A DNA stretch of 64,000 nt, taken from IMG/VR virus record IMGVR_UViG_3300047560_000604, positions 1-64,000 of that record, one strand, 5' to 3'. The notes under the pieces were generated by a model that saw only the letters and a list, made by a program, of their open reading frames with translations, made no database searches and was not told where the DNA came from. Both the position numbers and the translations under genes were made by a program. Source of the DNA: a virus. Numbering within the stretch: the stretch's first letter is position 1; every line of letters starts with the position of its first letter. This document shows, one piece after another, positions 40,641 to 58,099 of the stretch.

Positions 40641-40662
40641 GGGGACTTCGGTCCCCTTTTTT
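40641..40662 (+). terminator. Rho-independent terminator
   Basis: GGGGAC-TTCG-GTCCCC-TTTTTT. Confidence 0.92.
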
Positions 40663-40673
40663 CACCTCTAGTG

Positions 40674-40703
40674 TTGACTTCTGTGTACTAAAAGCTATAT
40701 ACT
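40674..40703 (+). promoter_or_regulatory. sigma70-like promoter; ATG 6 nt after the -10
   Basis: TTGACT-18-TATACT-6-ATG(40710). Confidence 0.7.
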
Positions 40704-40709
40704 AAGAGA

Positions 40710-41753
40710 ATGAAAAAAGTGAAACCTACAACAAAAGAACAGTTAATATACTTTTTTATAACCAACGTAAGTTTAGGAACTTACGATAAAAGATTCTTGT
40801 CTAATATAGAATCAATGAGCCTCATTGAAGGAAAACCATTGACCTCTAACCAAGTAGCATTGTTAGATAAGATAATCGCTAGGTATAGTAGACAGTTATC
40901 TAAAATGGAAATCAACGTAGATGAAATGTTGGCACTGCCATGGAACCTACAACCGATTGAAAGTCTACCACAATTCACTGAGGCTCACTTGAATCTCATG
41001 GAGGATGTATTTCTACTACATAGTCCATATAAGAAAGAATTCATCGATGAATTCAAACAAGCTGACATTGATGGTAAGTGGAACAAAGAAGACCGGTGCT
41101 GGACATTCCCTGCGTGTACTCATTCATTAAGTATAGCTACCTTTCTGATTGAAAAACATTATAACAAAGTAAACTACTGCGACCAAACTAAAGAGTTTAT
41201 AAATACAGCTAGTGAGTACAAGGATATGAAATATTGGAATCCTACTTACAAGTATATCAACGGTTCATTCTATGTTGTAGCAACAAATCCATATCTTGAA
41301 TCTGCAATTACAGATTTAGAATTTAACTTAGACCTTTCAGTCTTAGCTAGATTAGTAAGATATGGTGTCACTATTGATGACACAGTATTGATGAAGTTCA
41401 GTGAAACGTATTCGGTTGATGAAATAGCCTTTGCTATAGATCCTAAACCCAAAGTAGAAATAAACGATGATTCTATCATAGACAAGTTACAATCAATTAA
41501 AACAGATTGTGTTGCTTTTATGGAACTCACCGGCAGTTCTAGTAATTTTTTCAAAGGGTTGAAAGAGCAACTAAACGACACTGACATGAAGCAATTAACA
41601 CTATCAACCCGAGAGCCAGTCAATGATGCTTTCGTAGATAGTGAATACCCCGTGCTACTTGTATCTGGCTTTTGGACTAAATCCATGATGGATTCTCGTC
41701 AAGCTGCCAAAGTTATACACGTAGTAAACAGTAAACCAATTTTTATTAAATGA
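40710..41753 (+). CDS. Hypothetical protein upstream of UvsW
   Basis: Intact ORF, ATGA coupled to the helicase. Confidence 0.8.
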   Translation: MKKVKPTTKEQLIYFFITNVSLGTYDKRFLSNIESMSLIEGKPLTSNQVALLDKIIARYSRQLSKMEINVDEMLALPWNLQPIESLPQFTEAHLNLMEDVFLLHSPYKKEFIDEFKQADIDGKWNKEDRCWTFPACTHSLSIATFLIEKHYNKVNYCDQTKEFINTASEYKDMKYWNPTYKYINGSFYVVATNPYLESAITDLEFNLDLSVLARLVRYGVTIDDTVLMKFSETYSVDEIAFAIDPKPKVEINDDSIIDKLQSIKTDCVAFMELTGSSSNFFKGLKEQLNDTDMKQLTLSTREPVNDAFVDSEYPVLLVSGFWTKSMMDSRQAAKVIHVVNSKPIFIK

Positions 41754-43237
41754 AACAATGCAAAATAATCGTTAAGGATGAAGTTAACGTAAAAATAGAA
41801 GGACTCGAACTAACAGAGCGCAAGGCTCTGATGAAGAAGTTTGAGTATGAGAAGCCGGGTGCGAGGTATTTACCAAGTGTCCGGCTTGGTCGTTGGAATG
41901 GCAAGATTAGCTATTTCAGTCTAGGTGGTTCTAGTTTTGTAAACTTATTACCTGACATCCTTCCCTTCATTGACCAAGCAGGTTATGATATTGAGCTAGA
42001 AGACTTGCGTGAGTATTCTACTACGTTCAACTTCACCGAGTTCAAAGAAGATAGCTTCGCCGCGCACGTGTGGCCTGACAAGCATCCAATGGCAGGTTCT
42101 CCTGTTATGATTCGTGACTATCAGATTGAGATTATCAACAACTTCTTAAAGAATCCGCAATCACTACAAGAAGTTGCGACTGGTGCTGGCAAAACAATTA
42201 TGACTGCCGCACTGAGTTATTCAGTAGAGGGTTATGGACGTTCAATCGTTATCGTTCCTAACAAGGACTTGGTTACACAAACAGAACGTGATTACATTAA
42301 CGTGGGATTAGACGTAGGTGTATACTTCGGTGACAGAAAAGACTACGGTAAGACTCACACAATTTGTACGTGGCAAAGTCTTGGCAACATGTTAAAGAAA
42401 ACTAAAGCAGATGAAGCAGAGATTACAATAGGTGAATTCATTGAAGGTGTATGCTGTGTTATCGTTGACGAAGTTCACATGGCTAAAGCTGACGTATTGA
42501 AAGAACTATTGACAGGGGTAATGTCACACATTCCAATTCGTTGGGGATTGACTGGAACTATCCCTAAGAGTGAGTTTGATTATAAAGCTATCATGGTCTC
42601 ACTTGGACCTGTTATCGGTAAACTATCAGCAAAAGAATTACAAGACAAAGGCGTGTTATCAAACTGTCACGTTAACATCGTACAATTACAAGATAAAGTA
42701 GAGTTCAGTAACTACCAAACTGAATTGAAATATCTTCTTGAAGATGACAAACGATTGACTTCTATTTGTCAGTTACTTGAGAAGATTAAAGAGACTGGCA
42801 ACACATTAATTCTTGTTGATAGAGTGTCAGCAGGTAGAGCAATTCAAACAAGATTGAGTGAGGCATTCACTAAAGAAAGACTTGATTACGAAGTTAGTTT
42901 TGTGTCAGGTGAGACAGGATTAACTGAGAGGAAAGAACAGTATGATGAAGTGGCTACAGCTACTAACAAGGTTATTGTGGCGACTTATGGTGTGGCCGCT
43001 GTGGGTATTAATATTCCTAGGATTTTCAATCTGGTTCTTGTGGAACCCGGAAAGAGCTTTGTTCGAGTTATCCAATCTATTGGACGAGGTATTAGAAAGG
43101 CAGAAGATAAGGACTTTGTACAAATCTGGGATATTACGAGTTCCTGTAAATTCGCCAAACGACATTTGACACAACGTAAGACGTTCTACAAAGAGGCGTC
43201 GTACCCGTTTTCGATTGAAAAACTAGACTATAAGTGA
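41750..43237 (+). CDS. uvsW: SF2 DNA helicase UvsW-like
   Basis: IRDYQ, VATGAGKT, IVDEVH, GLTGT, QSIGRGIR. Confidence 0.93.
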   Translation: MKQCKIIVKDEVNVKIEGLELTERKALMKKFEYEKPGARYLPSVRLGRWNGKISYFSLGGSSFVNLLPDILPFIDQAGYDIELEDLREYSTTFNFTEFKEDSFAAHVWPDKHPMAGSPVMIRDYQIEIINNFLKNPQSLQEVATGAGKTIMTAALSYSVEGYGRSIVIVPNKDLVTQTERDYINVGLDVGVYFGDRKDYGKTHTICTWQSLGNMLKKTKADEAEITIGEFIEGVCCVIVDEVHMAKADVLKELLTGVMSHIPIRWGLTGTIPKSEFDYKAIMVSLGPVIGKLSAKELQDKGVLSNCHVNIVQLQDKVEFSNYQTELKYLLEDDKRLTSICQLLEKIKETGNTLILVDRVSAGRAIQTRLSEAFTKERLDYEVSFVSGETGLTERKEQYDEVATATNKVIVATYGVAAVGINIPRIFNLVLVEPGKSFVRVIQSIGRGIRKAEDKDFVQIWDITSSCKFAKRHLTQRKTFYKEASYPFSIEKLDYK

Positions 43238-44346: not shown

Positions 44347-45022
44347 ACCAATATATGGTTGTGAATTTTGTAATCGTAAATTTGCAAGAGAACGCACATT
44401 AGTTTCCCACATCTGTGAAACAAAATCTAGATGGCTTAGTAGAGATACCGCAGGCAATCGTTTGGGATATCAATGCTTCTTGCAATTCTATAAAAAGAAT
44501 ACAACAGCAAAGAAACCCAAGCCATACGAGGAGTATATTCGTAGCCCGTACTATACTGCGTTTGCTAAGTTCGGTAGTTACTGTGTTGATGTGCAAGTTA
44601 TCAACGTAAGTAGATATGTTGATTGGCTATTGAAAGATAGTATCAAGCTAGATAATTGGGCAACTGACGCAAACTACACAAAGTTCTTGTGTGAGTATCT
44701 TAGAATAGAAGACCCATTTGATGCTATTTACCGAAGCGTTGAGAAGTGTGTTGAATTGGGTGAGGCCCAAAATATATTACCAAATGATGTGTTGAGATTT
44801 GGGAATGTGAACAAAATCTGTTACGCCATAACAACGGGCAAAATCTCCCCCTGGATGTTGTATTGTAGCGACAGTGGTACCCAATTTCTAGCTAACTTAA
44901 ATGAAGATCATGTTAGAATAGTCATAGATTATATAAATCCACAACAATGGGCATTGAAGTTTAACCGTGACGAAAATCTTAAACAACAAATCAGAGACAC
45001 GCTCCAAGCCGCAGGGTACTAA
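44324..45022 (+). CDS. Hypothetical protein with N-terminal C2H2-like zinc finger
   Basis: YGCEFCNRKF.RE.TL..HICE. Confidence 0.8.
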   Translation: MSETEETKPIYGCEFCNRKFARERTLVSHICETKSRWLSRDTAGNRLGYQCFLQFYKKNTTAKKPKPYEEYIRSPYYTAFAKFGSYCVDVQVINVSRYVDWLLKDSIKLDNWATDANYTKFLCEYLRIEDPFDAIYRSVEKCVELGEAQNILPNDVLRFGNVNKICYAITTGKISPWMLYCSDSGTQFLANLNEDHVRIVIDYINPQQWALKFNRDENLKQQIRDTLQAAGY

Positions 45023-45206
45023 AGTAACACTTGATTGGCGGCACGGGCGTGATGGGACAGAATCATGGAATGAGATTTGTGCTTGGGTAATTGAGCAATA
45101 TGGTATGCCAGGCACACTTTACACATGGCACCCAACGGAAGACTACATGCAGTTCTACTTTCATAGAGAAAAGGATGCTATTCATTTTAGTTTGAGGTGG
45201 TTATGA
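44967..45206 (+). CDS. LRW-array protein
   Basis: Ends FHREKDAIHFSLRWL; start uncertain. Confidence 0.7.
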   Translation: MTKILNNKSETRSKPQGTKVTLDWRHGRDGTESWNEICAWVIEQYGMPGTLYTWHPTEDYMQFYFHREKDAIHFSLRWL

Positions 45207-45466
45207 AAGAACCCTATTTTGTTAGAGAAAGATACATTGTTAATGTATGTAGAGGTCTATGGATAGAGCCTTGGCCCAAATACTTTGATAACTTTTGGAA
45301 TCATTGTCTTGCTATTGGTCATGAAAATGAATGGCAAACTATCACTGTTGCTAACCATGAACTTAAACCATTAGGTGGTAAACTGATTATAACTAAAACA
45401 CAAGGGTGGTACTTACGTTGGGATGATGAAAAAACTCACGCATTTTTTATATTAAAGTGGTCATGA
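45203..45466 (+). CDS. LRW-array protein
   Basis: Ends DDEKTHAFFILKWS. Confidence 0.75.
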   Translation: MKEPYFVRERYIVNVCRGLWIEPWPKYFDNFWNHCLAIGHENEWQTITVANHELKPLGGKLIITKTQGWYLRWDDEKTHAFFILKWS

Positions 45467-45645
45467 ATCAACATAGTATCGCTATCGAAAGATGGACTTG
45501 GAAACATAGAAATGAAGTGAGAATGTGGCTAGTTGAGAACTTCGGTGTTCATGGTGGTCGCTGGTTTGAAGATCCTGACTACGGATTAGATAATCTAGTT
45601 ATGGATGAAGATGTTTATATGATGTATAGGTTGAGGTGGGAATAA
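45463..45645 (+). CDS. LRW-array protein
   Basis: Ends MDEDVYMMYRLRWE. Confidence 0.75.
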   Translation: MNQHSIAIERWTWKHRNEVRMWLVENFGVHGGRWFEDPDYGLDNLVMDEDVYMMYRLRWE

Positions 45646-45818
45646 TGGATCTTACTGAAGAACAATGTGACAAAATTTTTACTCCAAGTGAGGCAGAGCA
45701 AACTTGGCTAGTGTTACAAGGTAAATGCCCGCACAACGGCGGCTGGCGTCATGTGGGTCACGGTCATAACGATGACTGCTATGAATGTAAATTATGCAGC
45801 GAATCAAGATGGTGGTAA
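45645..45818 (+). CDS. Small zinc-finger-like protein
   Basis: CPHN..H.GH..CYECKLC. Confidence 0.65.
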   Translation: MDLTEEQCDKIFTPSEAEQTWLVLQGKCPHNGGWRHVGHGHNDDCYECKLCSESRWW

Positions 45819-45819
45819 C

Positions 45820-46065
45820 ATGAGACTGAAAGCGTTCAGAGGCAATCTGATGGCGCACAAACATCGCGGTAATCGCTGGACAGTGAGAGTTGCTGGCAAG
45901 ATTGATGATGAAGTGTGGTGTTGGTTAAGTGATAATTATGGCGAAGAAGATTTTGAAAATGGTCCCTGGGCTAGAATGTATGCTTCATGGGACTATTATA
46001 GTCACGCTACTTATGATGTAACAGACCCTAAAATTATTACTATGTTGAAATTGAGGTTTGAATGA
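45820..46065 (+). CDS. LRW-array protein
   Basis: Ends TDPKIITMLKLRFE. Confidence 0.7.
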   Translation: MRLKAFRGNLMAHKHRGNRWTVRVAGKIDDEVWCWLSDNYGEEDFENGPWARMYASWDYYSHATYDVTDPKIITMLKLRFE

Positions 46066-46379
46066 TTACAAGTGTATGGTACTCTACGGACGATCATAGA
46101 CCTTCTGTAGAGGGTTATTACCTAGCATACAAATTGCCTACTTTAGGTGATGATGAAGAAGGCTACGGGGTATACTACTGGGATGAGTTTTATAGAGACT
46201 GGAGAGAATCGAGTTCCCCTCAGTCACACGGCGTTAGAGTTAGCTTATGGTCAGAATTGCCACCACACGACCCTCGTGATAATACTGTACATCCACCCTC
46301 AGTAGCAGAAATTGACGCTTGGAATAATGTGATGAATGCCATTGACAAATTTAACATGGTGAAAGAGTTGAGTAGATAA
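46062..46379 (+). CDS. Small hypothetical protein
   Basis: WYSTDDHRP..GYYL..V..W..LP; coupled. Confidence 0.7.
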   Translation: MITSVWYSTDDHRPSVEGYYLAYKLPTLGDDEEGYGVYYWDEFYRDWRESSSPQSHGVRVSLWSELPPHDPRDNTVHPPSVAEIDAWNNVMNAIDKFNMVKELSR

Positions 46380-46723
46380 TGTTAGAAGTTGTGAACAAGA
46401 TTCTCGGAATGTTTGGTAAAGACATTCAAGCGAAAGCTACCCGAAAGATAGCAAACCCCGGTGACCAATTTAGCCCATTTAAGATAGTAGATGGGTATAT
46501 TGGGTTTAAACCTTTCCTAATTATTGAGAATCAAAACGAAACTATGTTATACTCACATGACTGTGTAGCAATTGATACCCGGTCAGAAGTTGAATTATGG
46601 ATACTTGACCAACCAGTTCACATGTGGAAGTATGCAGAAGAATGTGATGATTGTCACCCTGCAATGACAAGATTTTTAGTAAACAAAGAATTATTAACTT
46701 GGATGGAGTTAAAATGGAATTGA
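46379..46723 (+). CDS. LRW-array protein
   Basis: Ends NKELLTWMELKWN. Confidence 0.7.
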   Translation: MLEVVNKILGMFGKDIQAKATRKIANPGDQFSPFKIVDGYIGFKPFLIIENQNETMLYSHDCVAIDTRSEVELWILDQPVHMWKYAEECDDCHPAMTRFLVNKELLTWMELKWN

Positions 46724-47151
46724 ATCACTTATCAGATAATGAATTGATTGAGCATATCATTAGATATGATAATGACCCTGTGAGGGTTCGTCTTGCCACT
46801 CACATGCAACGAGTTAGTGGTGCTATCATTGATGACTTGCTTGATGCTGGTATGGATGACACATGGTGTAATTTTGATAGTGTTGTGAATGGTGCTCAAT
46901 ATCACCCCGGTCGATATATTACGCACCTTGAGAATGAAGTTGAATATCTTAACGACAAATTATCCGACGCCCTCAAAGAAATCAAAGAACTTCAAGCACG
47001 AACTATCATGGACTTTATCGGTGAACTTAAACAAGAGATTAAGACTGTAGAATGGTGCAGAGATGAGGCTTACAGAGATAGAGACAAAGCACAAGAGAAT
47101 GAAAAGTTGATGAAAAGTAAACTTAGCATGTGGGCTGAGTTGAACAGATGA
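46714..47151 (+). CDS. Coiled-coil hypothetical protein
   Basis: GGAG SD; heptad C-terminal half. Confidence 0.75.
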   Translation: MELNHLSDNELIEHIIRYDNDPVRVRLATHMQRVSGAIIDDLLDAGMDDTWCNFDSVVNGAQYHPGRYITHLENEVEYLNDKLSDALKEIKELQARTIMDFIGELKQEIKTVEWCRDEAYRDRDKAQENEKLMKSKLSMWAELNR

Positions 47152-47372
47152 ACGATAAAGTGAAAAGTTTTATGGAACAATGGTTCGGTGAAGAAGAACT
47201 CAATGACAAGTACTGGCCCTATCAGTTTACTATCAATGACTGGCAACGTATTCGTGAAACTGAACGATTTTGCTATAACAGTTTTAAAAGTGGTAACTGG
47301 CGCAATCGTGGAAGATACTTTGGATTCAAACGTAAGCAAGATTACGAATGGTTCTTATTAAGGTGGCTATGA
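47148..47372 (+). CDS. LRW-array protein
   Basis: Ends FKRKQDYEWFLLRWL. Confidence 0.8.
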   Translation: MNDKVKSFMEQWFGEEELNDKYWPYQFTINDWQRIRETERFCYNSFKSGNWRNRGRYFGFKRKQDYEWFLLRWL

Positions 47373-47626
47373 GAGTAGAGTTTAATCAAGGCGTACCCGA
47401 AGGATGTAAGCAATGGCTTTGGGATAATGTCGGACCCGGCAATATAACATTGACTAGACCTGGTATCATTGACACAAAAGATAGTCCCGAGTATGCTTGG
47501 TTCTTTGAGCGTATTAAGAAACCAACAACCCCGGAATCGTTTTATGACGACCCATTTTATTTTGTCCCTACTATCACAGTGAAAGATGAAAAGATGGCAA
47601 CAATATTTGCTTTGAGGTGGCTATGA
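47369..47626 (+). CDS. LRW-array protein
   Basis: Ends VKDEKMATIFALRWL. Confidence 0.8.
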   Translation: MRVEFNQGVPEGCKQWLWDNVGPGNITLTRPGIIDTKDSPEYAWFFERIKKPTTPESFYDDPFYFVPTITVKDEKMATIFALRWL

Positions 47627-47871
47627 TGGATTTAGAACTTGTAAAAAAGATTGTGGCTAGACAAGGGCAGAATGAGTTTCTCAAAAAACCTATCGTATTG
47701 CCACCCGAAGCAAAAGTTGTCACTGGTCAAATGAAGGAAGATGCTTACTTACATTTCCTAGAAACTAACTGCGGGGTAGAGATACATTTGTCAGAATATC
47801 ATAACGAGATAGTTGGGTACAATGTCATTGATGAAAAGAAATTTTCTTGGTTTGTATTGAAATGGTCATGA
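47623..47871 (+). CDS. LRW-array protein
   Basis: Ends IDEKKFSWFVLKWS. Confidence 0.8.
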   Translation: MMDLELVKKIVARQGQNEFLKKPIVLPPEAKVVTGQMKEDAYLHFLETNCGVEIHLSEYHNEIVGYNVIDEKKFSWFVLKWS

Positions 47872-47882
47872 AGGGACAATAA

Positions 47883-48221
47883 ATGGCACAGCCAATCATC
47901 ATGCCAATAATTAGACAGGTGACACCCACTTTACTAGCTAATAGTATCTTAGGTGTACAACCCATGACGGGCCCGGTGGGTGAAATCTTTACTATGAAGG
48001 CTAACTACGCTCCGCTCAAATATAAATTTAGCCGTGCTAAATGGTACTATGCAGACCATCGTTATGAAGATTATGATGCTATCATAGCATGGTGTACTGA
48101 ACAGTTTGGTCCGCGACCCAAACGCCCTGATGCATGGACACGATGGGTTGATGAACACATTGACCGTATTAAATTCCGTGACGAAAAAGATTATGCTTGG
48201 TTTGTGTTGAGATGGTCATGA
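47883..48221 (+). CDS. LRW-array protein with N-terminal gp23 (Gol-region)-like peptide
   Basis: IIMPIIRQVTPTLLANSILGVQPMTGPVGEIFTMKANY; ends FRDEKDYAWFVLRWS. Confidence 0.8.
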   Translation: MAQPIIMPIIRQVTPTLLANSILGVQPMTGPVGEIFTMKANYAPLKYKFSRAKWYYADHRYEDYDAIIAWCTEQFGPRPKRPDAWTRWVDEHIDRIKFRDEKDYAWFVLRWS

Positions 48222-48496
48222 CAGATACAGTCAAACTAGAGTGGACAGATATTTGTCGCCACGAGCATAGGTGTGAGAGCGGGAAAATGTTCCATCACAC
48301 TGTGCCCAGCTATAGTGTATACGTTCAAGCATACCAATGGTTGCGGGTAGAGCGTGGGTATAAGTTTATATGTGCTGCAGCCGAGATATCAGAGGAAGAA
48401 TACCCGGAAAGGGGTGGTAAAATTCACACCGGCAGATTCATATTCAAGTTCTTATGTGAGCAAGAGTATATGTGGTTTAAGTTGAGGTGGAGTTAA
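48218..48496 (+). CDS. LRW-array protein
   Basis: Ends FLCEQEYMWFKLRWS. Confidence 0.8.
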   Translation: MTDTVKLEWTDICRHEHRCESGKMFHHTVPSYSVYVQAYQWLRVERGYKFICAAAEISEEEYPERGGKIHTGRFIFKFLCEQEYMWFKLRWS

Positions 48497-48774
48497 TGGA
48501 ATATTTTTACGGTGGCGGCGGCAACAATCGCCCTGTCTTTTTATACAGATTTAAAGTCAACCCTTGTACTACTGAAATGTATAAGTGGGCACAAGCATAT
48601 CCTGAGAAAGGTCCCTTCAGTCGGTTTCATGTTGAATGGCGAGGGGCTTATAGCAAAATGGATAGACCCTTAGAATATGATGTAATTCAGTTTGAACATA
48701 GTGAAGCCGCTAAAGTATTCAGAATCGCATTTGCGGGTGAGTATGAAGAAACCACTTTCAAAGAATACAGATGA
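48496..48774 (+). CDS. LRW-array protein (divergent)
   Basis: FEHSEAAKVFRIAF. Confidence 0.7.
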   Translation: MEYFYGGGGNNRPVFLYRFKVNPCTTEMYKWAQAYPEKGPFSRFHVEWRGAYSKMDRPLEYDVIQFEHSEAAKVFRIAFAGEYEETTFKEYR

Positions 48775-49001
48775 ACAAGTACGATTACTGGAGATTGTTA
48801 AGAATTCTTAAAACAGAATATGATAAACAGTATACTGGTTACTATGAACCGACATATACTGGTTTCACAGATTCGTTTGACAAGTACATACAAGAACAGT
48901 ACGGAATAAAAATGTGGATTCATAATGACGGTAATATTGATGGTACTTTTGAAATTCTAGACGAAGGTAAGTATGCATGGTGCCTACTTAAACATAAATG
49001 A
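48771..49001 (+). CDS. LRW-array protein
   Basis: Ends LDEGKYAWCLLKHK. Confidence 0.75.
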   Translation: MNKYDYWRLLRILKTEYDKQYTGYYEPTYTGFTDSFDKYIQEQYGIKMWIHNDGNIDGTFEILDEGKYAWCLLKHK

Positions 49002-49438
49002 AAATACTTAGACGAATCAAAGCCTACGTTAGACTCAAAAAGAGCAGAAATTTTCTAAAGAAACATAAGTGTTTATCTTATAAACAATACAAGCTCCAGT
49101 ATGACGATGATATAATTAAGTACGCTACTTTGGTTAGCCACTTCTATCACGGTTACCCATATACATGTTACTTTGAGAAAGTACCCGACGGTGAGTTGTT
49201 GATGCCTTGGTTAGAGAAAATGGACGATTGGTGTCATACTAATTGTTCGGGTAAAGTCAGACATGATATCCATAGAGTTATTCGGGAAAAGGGCTTGATT
49301 CACAATCAATATGATGATACAATGATATGGAGTGATATAGAAGATTTTTCCATGAATGATATCGGTGGACATGACTTGTTATTCTATGCGTTTAAAAGTG
49401 AAAAGGATTATGCGTGGTTCAAACTAAGATGGCAGTAA
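48998..49438 (+). CDS. LRW-array protein
   Basis: Ends FKSEKDYAWFKLRWQ. Confidence 0.8.
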   Translation: MKILRRIKAYVRLKKSRNFLKKHKCLSYKQYKLQYDDDIIKYATLVSHFYHGYPYTCYFEKVPDGELLMPWLEKMDDWCHTNCSGKVRHDIHRVIREKGLIHNQYDDTMIWSDIEDFSMNDIGGHDLLFYAFKSEKDYAWFKLRWQ

Positions 49439-49692
49439 AAACCAAAGAAGAAGAAATGATGGATATCTTGGCTGAAGAAATTCGCAAAGAAATTGATGAG
49501 GGTATCATATCAAATATATTAGTTGAGACTGGATGGACACCTGTACAGTTTTATTTTAAGAACGGTGAGCAAGCAGTTGATGTACAGATTTGGTTAGCCG
49601 GAACATGTACTGATGACTATCGTAGATTGGGCAGTGACTACTTGTTTAAAAGTAAGCAAGATGCTGAATGGTTTATTCTACGATGGCTATGA
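49429..49692 (+). CDS. LRW-array protein with N-terminal gp23-like helix
   Basis: EEEMMDILAEEIRKEIDEGIISNIL; ends FKSKQDAEWFILRWL. Confidence 0.8.
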   Translation: MAVKTKEEEMMDILAEEIRKEIDEGIISNILVETGWTPVQFYFKNGEQAVDVQIWLAGTCTDDYRRLGSDYLFKSKQDAEWFILRWL

Positions 49693-49946
49693 CATTCAAA
49701 ATTGATGAGGGCAGAGTGTATGGAGCACGATACTATACCGCAAAACCTCATTGTGATGATTGGGATGAAGCAGTCCCATGGTACATACTACAAGACTGGG
49801 TAGAAGAAATGTTCGGAGAAAGTAAGGGTTCTATATGGTTTGATAAGGGAATACCTCAACCAGGTGAAAGATGGTATGTGAACAATGCGAAATTTTGGTT
49901 TCGCAACAAAGAAGATTTAGAATGGTTTTTATTAAGATGGCAATGA
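49689..49946 (+). CDS. LRW-array protein
   Basis: Ends FRNKEDLEWFLLRWQ. Confidence 0.8.
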   Translation: MTFKIDEGRVYGARYYTAKPHCDDWDEAVPWYILQDWVEEMFGESKGSIWFDKGIPQPGERWYVNNAKFWFRNKEDLEWFLLRWQ

Positions 49947-50188
49947 AAATAGAAGCAACAAAAGAGTTAGTCCAAATGATTGAACGTTCCGCACGTGAGT
50001 GGAAGAGGATCAAACCAATCCTAGAAGAAAAACATCGTCATTATGATACCTACGCTGAAGATATGTTCGGGATCAATGTCGATTTTGGTGTGTTTGATAA
50101 CAAGGTAGCTATCATTGGTGCCCAAATAATAGATGATGAAAAGTACGTCAACTTTCTATTAAGGTACGGAGACATGCCAAATGAGTAA
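49943..50188 (+). CDS. LRW-array protein
   Basis: IDDEKYVNFLLRYG. Confidence 0.75.
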   Translation: MKIEATKELVQMIERSAREWKRIKPILEEKHRHYDTYAEDMFGINVDFGVFDNKVAIIGAQIIDDEKYVNFLLRYGDMPNE

Positions 50189-50465
50189 TATGCACAAAGC
50201 AGTAAAAGAAATTAAAGAATTAGGCTCCTTCAGATATTGGGATGAACACTACTACGGCAGTAAACGAACTATTACTACTATTACTTGGAAAGGCAGGGGC
50301 GAAGTTGACTCTGATGAAATACAAGATTGGTGTTTAACCTCATTTGGTAAGAGCGGCTATCAAGAAGAAATCGAAGATAGTCTTTGGGTTGATAATTGTC
50401 AGTACGGTGAGCTTATGTTATGTAGACCCGAACTACTCACAGCGTTTTTATTAAGATGGACATGA
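50181..50465 (+). CDS. LRW-array protein
   Basis: Ends CRPELLTAFLLRWT. Confidence 0.75.
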   Translation: MSNMHKAVKEIKELGSFRYWDEHYYGSKRTITTITWKGRGEVDSDEIQDWCLTSFGKSGYQEEIEDSLWVDNCQYGELMLCRPELLTAFLLRWT

Positions 50466-50728
50466 AATTTGACATAAACAGAAGCATAGGCTGGAACATA
50501 GATAGAAGAATTGTGAAGCGTACTGACATTATCACAGACGGCGCAGATTGCTATCCATGGACTGAAACGTTTGTCATTTGGCCCAGACGAAGTATTTCGG
50601 GTGCTCCGTTGTTCTGGACTAAAGCATACAAGCGTAGAGTTTGGGTAGTATGGGGTACGGGGTTTCATATGGAACCAGAAGTTCAATATGCTACAGCATT
50701 TGATTTGTTGACACATGGTAACGATTAA
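50462..50728 (+). CDS. Trp-rich small hypothetical protein
   Basis: ATGA coupled. Confidence 0.7.
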   Translation: MKFDINRSIGWNIDRRIVKRTDIITDGADCYPWTETFVIWPRRSISGAPLFWTKAYKRRVWVVWGTGFHMEPEVQYATAFDLLTHGND

Positions 50729-50966
50729 ACTTAAACGAGGGCTAGAGCCACAAGCAGAACAATGGCTTGCTAAGAATGTGGGGCCAAGAATGCACTACCT
50801 CCATAATTCAATCGGTGGAGAAGGCTGGATCGCTAAGAAAGGTACCGAACCATTTGAGTATACCGATCAACAAGGTAATACGAGACAAATGACTGTTATA
50901 GTATGGAACCTCACATTCCAAGAAGATAAGTATGCTACTTGGTTTAGGATAATGTTTCCAGAATGA
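50715..50966 (+). CDS. LRW-array protein (divergent)
   Basis: FQEDKYATWFRIMF. Confidence 0.7.
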   Translation: MVTIKLKRGLEPQAEQWLAKNVGPRMHYLHNSIGGEGWIAKKGTEPFEYTDQQGNTRQMTVIVWNLTFQEDKYATWFRIMFPE

Positions 50967-51181
50967 TAGAGGTTAAACTCATAGATTTGATGCCCAATGA
51001 GATTATGGACATCGTAAAAGAACTAAGAAAGAACGGGTGTGTACAGGGTTTGGACTTTGATTTTGAGTATCATAAGCCCAAATATGATGACTTCGGCCAT
51101 GAACCAGTGTATAATAGACATACAATATTCAAGTTTTACAAAGAAGAATTAGCGACTTGGTTCGCATTGAGGTATCAATAG
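50963..51181 (+). CDS. LRW-array protein
   Basis: Ends FYKEELATWFALRYQ (TAG stop). Confidence 0.8.
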   Translation: MIEVKLIDLMPNEIMDIVKELRKNGCVQGLDFDFEYHKPKYDDFGHEPVYNRHTIFKFYKEELATWFALRYQ

Positions 51182-51465
51182 TGGCAATATCAGGTATAGG
51201 TAATAGCACAGGCACATTCATGCCCTACACAGGGACTCGTCCGCCTGAGGATCAAAGTAAATATGAAATTCATCACATGGGTAAAATCTTTCATCAGATT
51301 GATTTGAAATTTAGTAAAATTGATCCAGTAGACTATATTAAATGGTGCCGTAGAAATCTAGGTGATCGCGGTTCTACATGGGAGTTCTGGATGGCAGGTG
51401 GAATGTTGTATATTGAAGTCTGGGGCGAGAAGGCAAAGTTTACTTATGAAATGTGGAAGAACTAA
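51181..51465 (+). CDS. LRW-array protein (divergent)
   Basis: GTG start overlapping TAG; WGEKAKFTYEMWKN. Confidence 0.65.
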   Translation: MAISGIGNSTGTFMPYTGTRPPEDQSKYEIHHMGKIFHQIDLKFSKIDPVDYIKWCRRNLGDRGSTWEFWMAGGMLYIEVWGEKAKFTYEMWKN

Positions 51466-51758
51466 TGAGTGAGCTAGTAGCAATCAATGGAATTGTACAA
51501 GCACGTAGCCAATACATGGTATCCGGGGATAACATCGTGTTTCACATCGCACCGCCGTGCGGCTCAAGAATCTGTATTCTGTCAGAAGATGGTAGGTCTG
51601 ACTATGAAGGCACCGGCGACACGTATGTGTACCCAGGGGCTTCTAATGAAAGAACAAAATACAAACAGTTTATGGAAGATGTTTATGACAAACGTTATAA
51701 CCCAACAGTCAAAGACGCATTAGAGAAATTAAAAGTAGTAATGGAATTAGTACGATGA
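51465..51758 (+). CDS. Small hypothetical protein
   Basis: TAATG coupling. Confidence 0.7.
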   Translation: MSELVAINGIVQARSQYMVSGDNIVFHIAPPCGSRICILSEDGRSDYEGTGDTYVYPGASNERTKYKQFMEDVYDKRYNPTVKDALEKLKVVMELVR

Positions 51759-51955
51759 GTGCCGAGAATACATGGCGTGTAGTTGCAGGACTTAAACCCA
51801 TCCAATCATTTCGTTGCCGCTTTGGTTGGCATCGCTGGACTAGTTATGAAGTTGTAGAGCGACATGAATTCTCCATGCCATACGCCAAGTGTCATTGTGC
51901 AGACTGTGGATTACCTAGAATAGAACAACCCTACTCAAGCAAGAAAGAAAAGTAA
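51755..51955 (+). CDS. Small Cys/His zinc-finger-like protein
   Basis: CRFGWHRW..C.C..C; paralog of 40391. Confidence 0.7.
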   Translation: MSAENTWRVVAGLKPIQSFRCRFGWHRWTSYEVVERHEFSMPYAKCHCADCGLPRIEQPYSSKKEK

Positions 51956-52200
51956 TGGCTAATGCTTCACGCACTTGGCAAGAAAATCTAAAACAGTGGC
52001 AAAATTCAGATTTACCGGGTCTTTCAAATAGTCTCAATGAAATTGATATGCTCGTATTAGTACATGGTAAGATGCAAGAGTTATACCCGGGCAATTATTC
52101 ACTTGATTGGAAGTTTGATTCAGTAACCGGGGCTTTCAAGTTGTATCCGAAATTTAACACACCAGAAGACGAGACTTGGTTCATATTAAAATATAGTTAA
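51955..52200 (+). CDS. LRW-array protein
   Basis: Ends FNTPEDETWFILKYS. Confidence 0.75.
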   Translation: MANASRTWQENLKQWQNSDLPGLSNSLNEIDMLVLVHGKMQELYPGNYSLDWKFDSVTGAFKLYPKFNTPEDETWFILKYS

Positions 52201-52257
52201 GGAAACAAACGACATTATGATTGACGAATGATAAATACTTTATCAGGAGTTAAAACA

Positions 52258-52875
52258 ATGGATTACAGGAAACTTTGGGAATCGCACAACGGACCTATAC
52301 CAAAAGATAAAGATGGTAGAAGTTATGAAATACATCACATTGATGGTAACCATCAAAATAATGTCATTGAAAATTTGAAATTAGTAACTATTCAAGAACA
52401 CTATGATGTACATTATTCGCAAGGTGACTACGGGGCATGTCTGGCTATCATTATGAGAATGAATGTTCCGGTTGAGGTGTCAAAGAAATTACAAAGCAAA
52501 CTAAGTAAAGCAGTTGCCGCAAAACGCATTGCCGAAGGCACCCATAACTTTTCATCCGAACTTAGTAAGCGAGTTCAGAAAGAAAGATTAGATAATGGAA
52601 CACACAACTTTCAAGGTGAACAAGGTAGCCTTAATGCTGTACAACGCAATAATAAACTAGTAGAATTAGGAAAGCATCCGTGGGCAGGTGAGTTAGGAAA
52701 GATTCATAATAAGAAAGTAGCTACTGAAAGAATTGCTAATGGTACGCATAACTTTCAAGGAGAGATGAACCCTAATAAAAACATGCCTAAGGTAACATGC
52801 CCACATTGTGGTAAAGTAGGTGGTCGTAATTCAATGAAACGATACCATTTTGATAATTGTAAGAATAAGGAATAA
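52258..52875 (+). CDS. HNH homing endonuclease with GTHNF repeats and C-terminal Zn ribbon
   Basis: YEIHHIDGNHQNN..ENL..VT..EH; R(I/L)xxGTHNF three times; CPHCGK..HFDNC; AGGAG SD. Confidence 0.88.
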   Translation: MDYRKLWESHNGPIPKDKDGRSYEIHHIDGNHQNNVIENLKLVTIQEHYDVHYSQGDYGACLAIIMRMNVPVEVSKKLQSKLSKAVAAKRIAEGTHNFSSELSKRVQKERLDNGTHNFQGEQGSLNAVQRNNKLVELGKHPWAGELGKIHNKKVATERIANGTHNFQGEMNPNKNMPKVTCPHCGKVGGRNSMKRYHFDNCKNKE

Positions 52876-55704: not shown

Positions 55705-56679
55705 ATGTTTGATATCCTTTCGTTAATTCCCGGTAAGAAAAAGAGCACAAGTAGTGGTTGGACTAGTTTCAATGCTATTTGCTGCGGGCACCGCGGTCAT
55801 AAAGCTGACCGGCGCGGTAGAGGTGGTATTAAATTTGATGGCCAAGCAAACTGGGTCATGCACTGCTTTAATTGCAGTTTCAGTTGTAGCTTTACATTGG
55901 GCAAGACTATTGCCCCTAAAACTCGACAATTCTTAACATGGTGTGGCGTTGATACTGAACAAGTACAACGATGGAGTTTAGAAAGTTTACAGCACAAAGA
56001 TTTCTTGGATTTCACTATCCAACAAAAACGATTAACACAAATCAAGTTCAAGACTAAGAAACTGCCTTTGGGTGAACCACTTGACAGTTCTAATCCAAGA
56101 CACAAATTCTACGTAGATTATCTGAACAAGCGCAAGATAAATTATAATACATATTCTTTCTATGTGAATCCAGATGGAAAGAGTAGAAATCAGTTCGGTA
56201 TAATCGTACCATACACTTACAAGGCAAAACTTGTAGGCAGCACTATTCGCTTCATTGACAATAAAATCCCCAAGTTCATTAATGACCAACAACCGGGATA
56301 TGTATTCAATGTTGACGCACAAAAATCTGAATCGACTGTTTGTATTGTTACTGAAGGTATCTTTGACGCCCTGGCTATTGATGGGGTAGCATTGATGCAC
56401 GATGATATCAGCAATGAGCAAGCAATGCTACTAGCACAAATGAATAAGAGAATAATCGTAGTGCCCGACTTTGATGCAACGGGTTTGAAGATATGTGATA
56501 GAGCCCTTGAATTAGGATACAGTGTAAGTTTACCCCCATGGGATGTAGGGATAAAGGATGTTAATGACGCAGTGGTTAAGTACGGAAAACTACCTACTCT
56601 GTTGAGCATTTTAGAGAATGCTACGATGAGCAAAATTAAAATAGAATTAAGGAAGAAACAAATTGCTAAAGGAATATAA
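55705..56679 (+). CDS. gp61: DNA primase (gp61-like)
   Basis: Zn finger C..C..RG..HCFNC; IVTEGIFDA; PD.D..G; KDVNDA. Confidence 0.88.
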   Translation: MFDILSLIPGKKKSTSSGWTSFNAICCGHRGHKADRRGRGGIKFDGQANWVMHCFNCSFSCSFTLGKTIAPKTRQFLTWCGVDTEQVQRWSLESLQHKDFLDFTIQQKRLTQIKFKTKKLPLGEPLDSSNPRHKFYVDYLNKRKINYNTYSFYVNPDGKSRNQFGIIVPYTYKAKLVGSTIRFIDNKIPKFINDQQPGYVFNVDAQKSESTVCIVTEGIFDALAIDGVALMHDDISNEQAMLLAQMNKRIIVVPDFDATGLKICDRALELGYSVSLPPWDVGIKDVNDAVVKYGKLPTLLSILENATMSKIKIELRKKQIAKGI

Positions 56680-58099
56680 TAAAGACGTACAATCATTGTT
56701 CTTGCGAATGATGTTAACTAACTCCGAGTTGTATACTCGTGTTATGAACATTATGAACGCAGACAACTTTGATAAAGGGTTGAGACCAGTTGCTGAGTTT
56801 GTCAAGGAATACAGTGCAAAATATAATGTGTTACCTGATGTATCACAAATCAAAGCAACAACTGGCACAGACATTGAACTTGTTGAAGACATGGGTGACA
56901 AGCACACCGAATGGTTTTTGACTGAGTTTGAGGGTTTTACTAAACGTCAAGAGTTAGAACGTGCAATTCTTAAAGCAGCCGATTTGCTTGAGAAGGGTGA
57001 ATTCGGCCCGGTTGAGAAACTAATCAAAGACGCAGTTCAAATCAGCTTACAGAAAGACATGGGTACAGATTACTTTCTAGACCCAAAGACTCGTATCAAC
57101 AAATACTTTAACGCAGGTGGACAACAATCTACGGGTTGGCCTCAACTTGATAAACTACTATATGGTGGTTTCAGTCGTGGTGAATTGAACATCTTTGCAG
57201 GTGGTTCAGGTTCAGGTAAATCATTGGTTATGATGAACATTGCGTTGAACTGGTTAGAGATGGGATTGAACGGAGTGTATGTCTCACTTGAATTGTCAGA
57301 AGAATTAACAAGTTTGCGTACTGATGCTATGTTAACTAGCATGAGTACCAGAGACATTCGCAAGGACATTGATAGCACAGAACTTAGAGTTAAGATGTTT
57401 GCTAAGAAAGCAGGACAGTATCGTGTCAAGGGGATGCCAGCGCAAAGTAACGTTAACGACATTCGTTCATATCTAAAAGAAGTGCAAATTCAAACAGGAA
57501 TGAGAGTTGACTTTGTTATGATTGACTACTTGGATCTTGTTATGCCAGTTTCAGTCAAAGTGAACCCAAATGACCAGTTTATCAAGGATAAGTATGTTTC
57601 AGAAGAACTACGTAACTTAGCTAAAGAACTAGGAATTTTGATGGTTACAGCGTCACAGTTGAACCGTAGTGCGGTTGAAGAAATCGAATTCGACCATAGT
57701 CACATTGCTGGTGGTATTTCAAAGATTAACACAGCAGATAACGTATTTGGTATCTTTACAAGTCGCTCAATGAGAGAGCGCGGACAGTATCAGATTCAAT
57801 GTATGAAGTCACGTAGTTCTACGGGTGTGGGTCAAAAGATAGAATTATCGTATAATATCGAAACCATGCGTATTACAGATGATGATCCAGATGGATATGC
57901 TGACCAACAAGCAAAATACAAGTCTGCTCCTAGTCCGAATGACATTATGAGTCAGTTAAAACCACAGTCAAGTTTAAGTTCGTCTGAACCAGTAATCGAC
58001 CAGAAAACAGGGGAAATCATCGAACCTGTACAGAAAAAAGTCGTTGCAGACGTTAGAGGATCACAACTCAAATCTCTACTCAACAATCTGAAAAAGTGA
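56663..58099 (+). CDS. gp41: Replicative DnaB-like helicase (gp41-like)
   Basis: FAGGSGSGKS, VSLELSE, MIDYLD, TASQLNR, KSRSS. Confidence 0.93.
   Translation: MLKEYNKDVQSLFLRMMLTNSELYTRVMNIMNADNFDKGLRPVAEFVKEYSAKYNVLPDVSQIKATTGTDIELVEDMGDKHTEWFLTEFEGFTKRQELERAILKAADLLEKGEFGPVEKLIKDAVQISLQKDMGTDYFLDPKTRINKYFNAGGQQSTGWPQLDKLLYGGFSRGELNIFAGGSGSGKSLVMMNIALNWLEMGLNGVYVSLELSEELTSLRTDAMLTSMSTRDIRKDIDSTELRVKMFAKKAGQYRVKGMPAQSNVNDIRSYLKEVQIQTGMRVDFVMIDYLDLVMPVSVKVNPNDQFIKDKYVSEELRNLAKELGILMVTASQLNRSAVEEIEFDHSHIAGGISKINTADNVFGIFTSRSMRERGQYQIQCMKSRSSTGVGQKIELSYNIETMRITDDDPDGYADQQAKYKSAPSPNDIMSQLKPQSSLSSSEPVIDQKTGEIIEPVQKKVVADVRGSQLKSLLNNLKK

Follow-up and report, generated by a model that had tools for sequence, protein, structure and literature searches.

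A Gol-region homologue carried on a small LRW-module protein in uncultured jumbo phages

Why T4-type capsid proteins carry an invariant EF-Tu-binding stretch is a question that has been open since the 1990s. In 2005, Copeland and Kleanthous reportedly found that 13 residues of the 20-residue core of this stretch, called Gol, matter for its activity. In T4, Gol consists of 29 residues within the first quarter of the major capsid protein (MCP) gp23; it is the most conserved gp23 region among T4-related phages, and it binds domains II-III of EF-Tu, which leads to cleavage of EF-Tu by Lit (PMC3014915). Capsid proteins are common triggers of bacterial immunity: short MCP motifs are read by Lit and by CapRel, and the MCP is sensed by Avs7/8/10 and Dsr1 (bioRxiv 10.64898/2026.01.04.697583; PMC9712102). 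In the unexpanded T4 head, the same stretch of gp23 is flexible, faces inwards and probably touches the scaffold; the mutations A94V and G97S, which affect head length, map to it, as does Met98, a contact to the portal, and once the head has expanded it becomes an extended N-arm that makes intercapsomer contacts (PMC9546572; PMC9958956).

The window that we analysed, a stretch of 64,000 nt, comes from an IMG/VR contig of 133 kb that is about 38% complete. No full-length MCP was found in this 133-kb record, and full MCP comparisons were made on complete relatives. At 47883-48221 on the plus strand (stop included) the window carries a gene for a chimeric protein of 112 aa, in which an MCP N-arm peptide is joined to an LRW module. 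The open reading frame closes with a TGA at 48219-48221, the protein ends in WFVLRWS, and there are ATGA overlaps at both ends of the gene, its own stop overlapping the ATG of the next gene. At the upstream end, the ATGA overlap with the stop of the preceding gene begins a four-codon mini-ORF (ATG AAG GGA CAA TAA; 47868-47882, plus strand), inside which lies an SD-like GAAGGGA, 6 nt upstream of the real ATG of the 112-aa gene. In the alignment, relatives begin at the ATGA site (47868 in the window) and have about 17 additional MCP-like N-terminal residues, so that on this comparison the window's copy is an N-terminally trimmed form; one homologue, P0002, has a short start identical to it.

The similarity to gp23 claimed in an earlier note on this DNA holds in profile searches. 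Pfam PF07068 (Gp23) matches residues 3-46 over profile positions 5-48 of 376 (E 6.3e-13, 49.3 bits, above the curated gathering cut-off of 24.4 bits), and PHROG 138, 'major head protein', matches the peptide with E 1.5e-12. Moreover, in a phmmer search of PDB sequences, residues 4-43 (47892-48011, plus strand) aligned without gaps to positions 93-132 of T4 gp23 (6uzc_a and others; E 3.8e-5), that is, to the Gol region or extended N-arm, with 17 identities in 40 residues, the GVQPM block among them; the note's alignment of 16 identities in 38 lies within this one and was thus correct. Searching the 133-kb record by tblastn with five MCPs of the clade returned 47895-48011, with 59-62% identity over 39 residues (E 8e-12 to 5e-11), and the window's peptide corresponds to about residues 60-98 of the clade MCP. 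Since the peptide is closer to the clade MCP than to T4 gp23, these alignments indicate that its source is the phage lineage's own capsid gene, in agreement with the captured capsid segment that had been proposed. Judged by the same alignments the peptide is a Gol-region homologue, which fits the literature description of the most conserved gp23 stretch, located in the first quarter of the protein. That the resemblance arose by chance, or that the ORF was mis-called, has in its favour the shortness of the match and nothing else; against a Pfam E-value of 6e-13 over the curated cut-off, and orthologues in many contigs at 75-85% identity, its probability is practically nil, and this candidate was rejected on the Pfam, homologue, T4 gp23 and clade-MCP matches together.

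The true MCPs of the clade are T4-type proteins of 389-398 aa, 66% identical to the MCPs of Vibrio phage 2.275.O (349 kb) and of the Pseudomonas PA5oct group. Like a T4-type MCP, the 112-aa protein is over the Pfam cut-off, at profile positions 5-48, but it spans only about 12% of the profile, where a full HK97-type shell subunit would cover most of the 376 positions in about 390-520 aa; the A, P and I domains are all missing and, because the HK97 fold is absent, the protein cannot be a shell subunit. The comparison with the phage's own gp23, which the earlier note had put forward, was run on complete relatives. In G001 (364,247 bp, with terminal repeats) the MCP gene lies at 283.4-284.6 kb and the orthologue of the fusion gene at 201 kb, and the DNA coding for the tail is 48% identical to the genome's own MCP gene, and 20% identical at third positions, with 16 of 40 residues kept. 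Synonymous sites of the peptide are thus saturated relative to the MCP gene of the same genome, and residues are kept, which argues for an old copy maintained at the protein level without gene conversion. As a separate observation, the copied stretch, residues 52-97, is almost entirely invariant in 30 MCPs of the clade whose overall identity to the G001 MCP is 74-78% (L107:3390-4583(-), alignment A3); no other block of the protein is as conserved, which is also what has been reported for Gol in T4-type phages. An AlphaFold2 model of the clade MCP, meant for placing the segment in the fold, had a mean pLDDT of 49 from too shallow an alignment and was unusable.

Homologues of the 112-aa protein number 187 at E<=0.01, in uncultured jumbo phages with contigs of up to 364 kb, most of them with a precomputed PF07068 hit, and the family has 78 loci in IMG/VR; on this distribution the gene is genuine and belongs to the conserved accessory genes of one clade of these phages. 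Among orthologues, pN in the tail is 0.06-0.25 against a pS of 0.32-0.83, the same regime as in the module, and by this measure the tail is under purifying selection. Across 74 distinct fusion tails, counting from the G of GVQPM, variation is almost absent at P-16, I-14, R-13, P-9, A-5, I-2, GVQPM itself, G+9, I+11 and F+12, and these are the positions common to the clade MCP and T4 gp23. AlphaFold2 predicts the capsid-derived tail to be disordered (pLDDT about 50). Given that the capsid fold is absent, that disorder is predicted and that the conserved positions are those of the MCP and T4, the tail can be read as a short linear motif kept for binding. A DNA search of the region against cultured phages gave no match, and tblastn of the whole protein against 2073 records of cultured T4-type phages returned full-length MCP genes only, at one place per record and with no second copy.

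The rest of the protein, residues 46-112 (48018-48218, plus strand), is an LRW module of the 'KYKFSRAKWY...WFVLRW' subfamily. The fusion to this module, as described earlier, is borne out by an HMM built from array members, which matches the 112-aa ORF with an envelope of residues 28-112 (E 2.7e-19), and the protein also has the terminal F-x-L-R-W and the ATGA-coupled array setting of the LRW-module family. AlphaFold2 predicts residues 51-112 with a pLDDT of about 90 as a strand, a helix, two strands and a helix (beta-alpha-beta-beta-alpha). In a 35-member family alignment all the invariant columns (19/19) fall inside the C-terminal module, and the N-terminus varies in kind. Foldseek of the 112-aa model against PDB gave no match at E<=0.001, a wide VIA-align search with the same model reached at best Z 5.7, with generic small alpha/beta arrangements and no informative fold, a profile of 44 LRW modules found no match among PDB sequences, and tblastn of the module alone found none in cultured phages. 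The LRW HMM has 17 copies in the window's record and 34 in the complete 364-kb relative G001, where they are arranged in arrays at 51-58 kb and 200-205 kb. In public data, an LRW profile search among 1.84 billion representatives yielded 2035 clusters at 50% identity, the best 150 of which are all 56-156 aa long. The closest relatives of the chimera are therefore the uncharacterised LRW mini-proteins of the same phages, with which it has the C-terminal domain and the ATGA-coupled arrays in common; most of these are a bare module of 60-100 aa, and the subfamily of the 112-aa protein is one of few with an N-terminal head.

The capsid peptide is not confined to this subfamily, since in related genomes it is also the head of at least four further LRW subfamilies. 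Two of these have orthologues in the window: L051 and L049 carry the peptide on orthologues of 47148-47372 (E 1e-16 to 1e-18), and L090 and L064 on orthologues of 46379-46723 (E 4e-25 and 4e-13), an array member on the plus strand whose N-terminus in the window is a degenerate remnant of the MCP peptide only. Two more are L068:1287-1721 and L070:5956-6363. The start of the head differs, from MCP residue 1 in P0020 to about 30 in L021, about 48 in most members and about 60 in the window, and the core is present in every case. The array member at 49414-49692 on the plus strand preserves a faint trace of another part of the MCP, the spine helix with an EI..EID motif (Pfam Gp23 positions 171-198), where Gp23 scores E 7.4e-4, under the cut-off, and tblastn E 0.01-0.6. 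Its orthologue in G003, L070:4395-4808 (E 2e-13), has a clear MCP E-loop and spine helix (E 1e-7). In relatives, the MCP E-loop strand and spine helix head two further LRW subfamilies (L070:4395-4808, L068:1679-2068, P0219, P0247), orthologues of the window's 49414-49692 and 49668-49946, and the window's own copy at 49668-49946 is without trace of them. Of the N-terminal extensions of other LRW proteins, compared with every large ORF in G000 and G001, those derived from the MCP were the only ones that could be traced to another phage gene.

A sister branch of the KYKFSRAKWY module has, instead of the capsid peptide, a head of the form GG.K.GEM...S.GRQTGKS...NLCKEI (P0112, P0163, P0194 and about 20 others, alignment A4; G001:201810-202187(-)). 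Against the DnaB-like helicase (56663-58099 in the window) this head gave hmmsearch E-values of 0.0015 and 0.0097 in 2824 ORFs and an hhalign probability of 81.5% (E 1e-5), and Pfam scans of single members gave weak, mixed P-loop hits. The resemblance of this head to the Walker-A strand-loop in the DnaB-like helicase of the same phage is thus suggestive only, and the carrier may hold core-protein fragments of a second kind. An origin from the terminase was rejected, the 7-residue Walker A being the sole match and hhalign giving 17.7%, against 81.5% for the DnaB-like helicase.

The gene is part of a tightly coupled array of small genes (44967-52200, plus strand) with 17 LRW-HMM matches and ATGA coupling, and in only two members, its own product being one, does the module begin well away from the N-terminus. 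The array is encoded on the plus strand, with a UvsW-like helicase (41750-43237) on one side and genes for an HNH endonuclease, a 3'-5' exonuclease, a Toprim primase and the DnaB-like helicase on the other. Comparison with L003, L006 and L012, whose orthologues of the fusion gene are 52-84% identical to the window's, showed the region to be syntenic between conserved flanks, with the order of LRW cassettes inside thoroughly shuffled.

We hypothesise, tentatively and somewhat short of even confidence, that the tail is a molecular mimic, competing with unassembled MCP for one of its partners, which would most likely be EF-Tu or a sensor of the host. The flexible N-terminal tail would bind the factor that normally recognises the same segment in new, unassembled capsid protein, and the attached LRW domain would render this binding unproductive or divert it. 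The likeliest partner would be on the host side, either an abortive-infection sensor that reads a short MCP motif in the style of Lit or CapRel, or EF-Tu itself. Judging from the gene neighbourhood, a cluster co-directional with replication genes, the chimera would probably be made before the capsid protein and could potentially pre-occupy the partner. Its tail is homologous in sequence to T4 gp23 Gol, the cofactor of the e14 Lit protease, and like synthetic or over-expressed Gol it is outside the capsid fold, but the chimera is a separate gene product beside the phage's MCP, is fused to an unrelated domain and derives from the clade MCP. With anti-defence mimics and decoys such as the DNA mimic Ocr, or DSAD1 acting against DSR2, it shares the small size, the accessory status, the variable array and an apparent mimicry; unlike them, it would imitate an epitope of the phage's own protein and not DNA or a host ligand. 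That hundreds of uncultured giant phages keep this conserved stretch under selection in a gene product of its own points to an autonomous recognition motif, and about 74 naturally occurring versions of the peptide, attached to a soluble carrier domain, are ready reagents for finding what binds the stretch and for testing whether phages use self-mimicry against capsid-sensing defences.

The decoy or mimic idea of the earlier note stands in part, as a captured and selected segment in an accessory array within a replication-gene cluster suits a mimic, and a role inside the phage explains the same facts. Several points count against a mimic: a free Gol-like peptide would be expected to activate rather than block a Lit-type system, unless the module interferes; the module has no recognisable fold relative that would point to an effect on a bound partner; and the peptide has decayed in some lineages (46379-46723 in the window), with most LRW proteins being headless. 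Furthermore, the T4 segment also contacts the scaffold, the portal and neighbouring capsomers, so that a phage-internal partner would fit equally well (PMC9546572). The main rival builds on this, and supposes that the tail imitates the MCP N-arm in head assembly or packaging and binds the phage's own scaffold core, portal whiskers or a neighbouring capsomer, with the result that the LRW domain is carried into the procapsid, like the capsid-targeting sequence of an injected internal protein, or that assembly or head size is tuned. The presence of A94V, G97S and the portal-contacting Met98 within the homologous stretch, and its intercapsomer contacts after expansion (PMC9546572; PMC9958956), speak for such a role, as does the fact that longer members start near the mature MCP start, at HMM position 48. 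We nevertheless consider it unlikely, given that the gene has replication-type neighbours and is distant from the head genes (G001 has the fusion gene at 201 kb, the MCP gene at 283 kb), that no T4-style L/I-x-E processing motif is seen in the first 30 residues on direct reading, and that the fusion peptide has diverged at positions invariant in 30 MCPs, which would be odd if both fit the same phage partner. The T4 internal proteins IPI-III, with their N-terminal capsid-targeting sequence (CTS), are also small, and the N-terminal tail of the chimera could similarly address the head-assembly machinery; however, the chimera has no sequence similarity to them, its tail is MCP-derived and not a CTS, there is no evident processing site, and its gene is outside any head-gene or IP context. 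If the role were nonetheless in head assembly, the family would represent assembly factors of a new, N-arm-based class.

Two other explanations are less probable. A dominant-negative N-arm could poison the capsid assembly of co-infecting T4-type competitors or capsid-hijacking satellites and leave the MCP of its own phage, which has diverged, unharmed; the tail follows the pan-T4 consensus (at +12, for instance, it has the F of T4, a position at which H is invariant in the clade MCPs), capsomer contacts are mediated by N-arms (PMC9546572), and conflict is a frequent role of hyper-variable accessory arrays. At the same time the core GVQPM block is identical to that of the phage's own MCP, so that self-poisoning would be hard to avoid, there is no sign of competitors or satellites, and the DnaB-like P-loop heads are not an obvious fit, which makes such a weapon very unlikely. 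Alternatively, recombination of the cassette array may have picked up a piece of gene 23 as a functionless by-product, with the LRW module alone being of importance. Extensive cassette shuffling, the loss or degradation of the peptide in some copies and the singleton chimera P0020, in which MCP residues 1-84 give way to the module right at the GVQPMTG block that both share, are what such an accident would produce, but the peptide is under the same purifying selection as the module, its motif positions are retained although synonymous sites are saturated, and it recurs on several subfamilies trimmed to the same core; we consider this explanation very unlikely too. Beyond the mimic that we tentatively favour for the capsid tail, the LRW arrays as a whole could be a display platform, in which a stable domain presents pieces of the phage's own core proteins as self-epitope decoys. 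The pieces would be the MCP N-arm or Gol segment, the MCP E-loop with the spine helix, and the P-loop strand of the replicative helicase, and they would blunt sensors of capsid and helicase of the Lit, CapRel, Avs or Dsr type, or hold EF-Tu. We regard this extension as rather improbable; if true, phages would have a hitherto undescribed principle of counter-defence, in which what is imitated is the phage itself and not its host, and in a literature search no phage-encoded stand-alone copy of a capsid sensor epitope, or self-epitope decoy, was found.

Some further observations concern single genes and the borders of the array. P0020, on an ENA contig of 4.5 kb, encodes 167 aa, of which the part corresponding to MCP residues 1-84, propeptide included, is 84% identical to the G002 MCP, and it changes to the fusion-family sequence exactly after GVQPMTG; a twin was sought in IMG/VR and none was found, the search returning MCP genes only, and P0020 is either a true recombinant between gene 23 and the mini-gene or an assembly chimera. 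The HNH endonuclease gene that directly follows the array (52228-52875; PF13392, E 1.7e-13) has no counterpart at that place in L003, L006 and L012 and is, for this reason, probably a mobile insertion. Scans of the region for promoters, terminators and T4 late promoters did not rise above shuffled controls. At 40641-40703, the region's strongest terminator-like hairpin, GGGGAC-TTCG-GTCCCC with a T-run, precedes a sigma-70-like promoter match just before the ORF at 40710, and this site is a possible start of a transcription unit that runs into the array.
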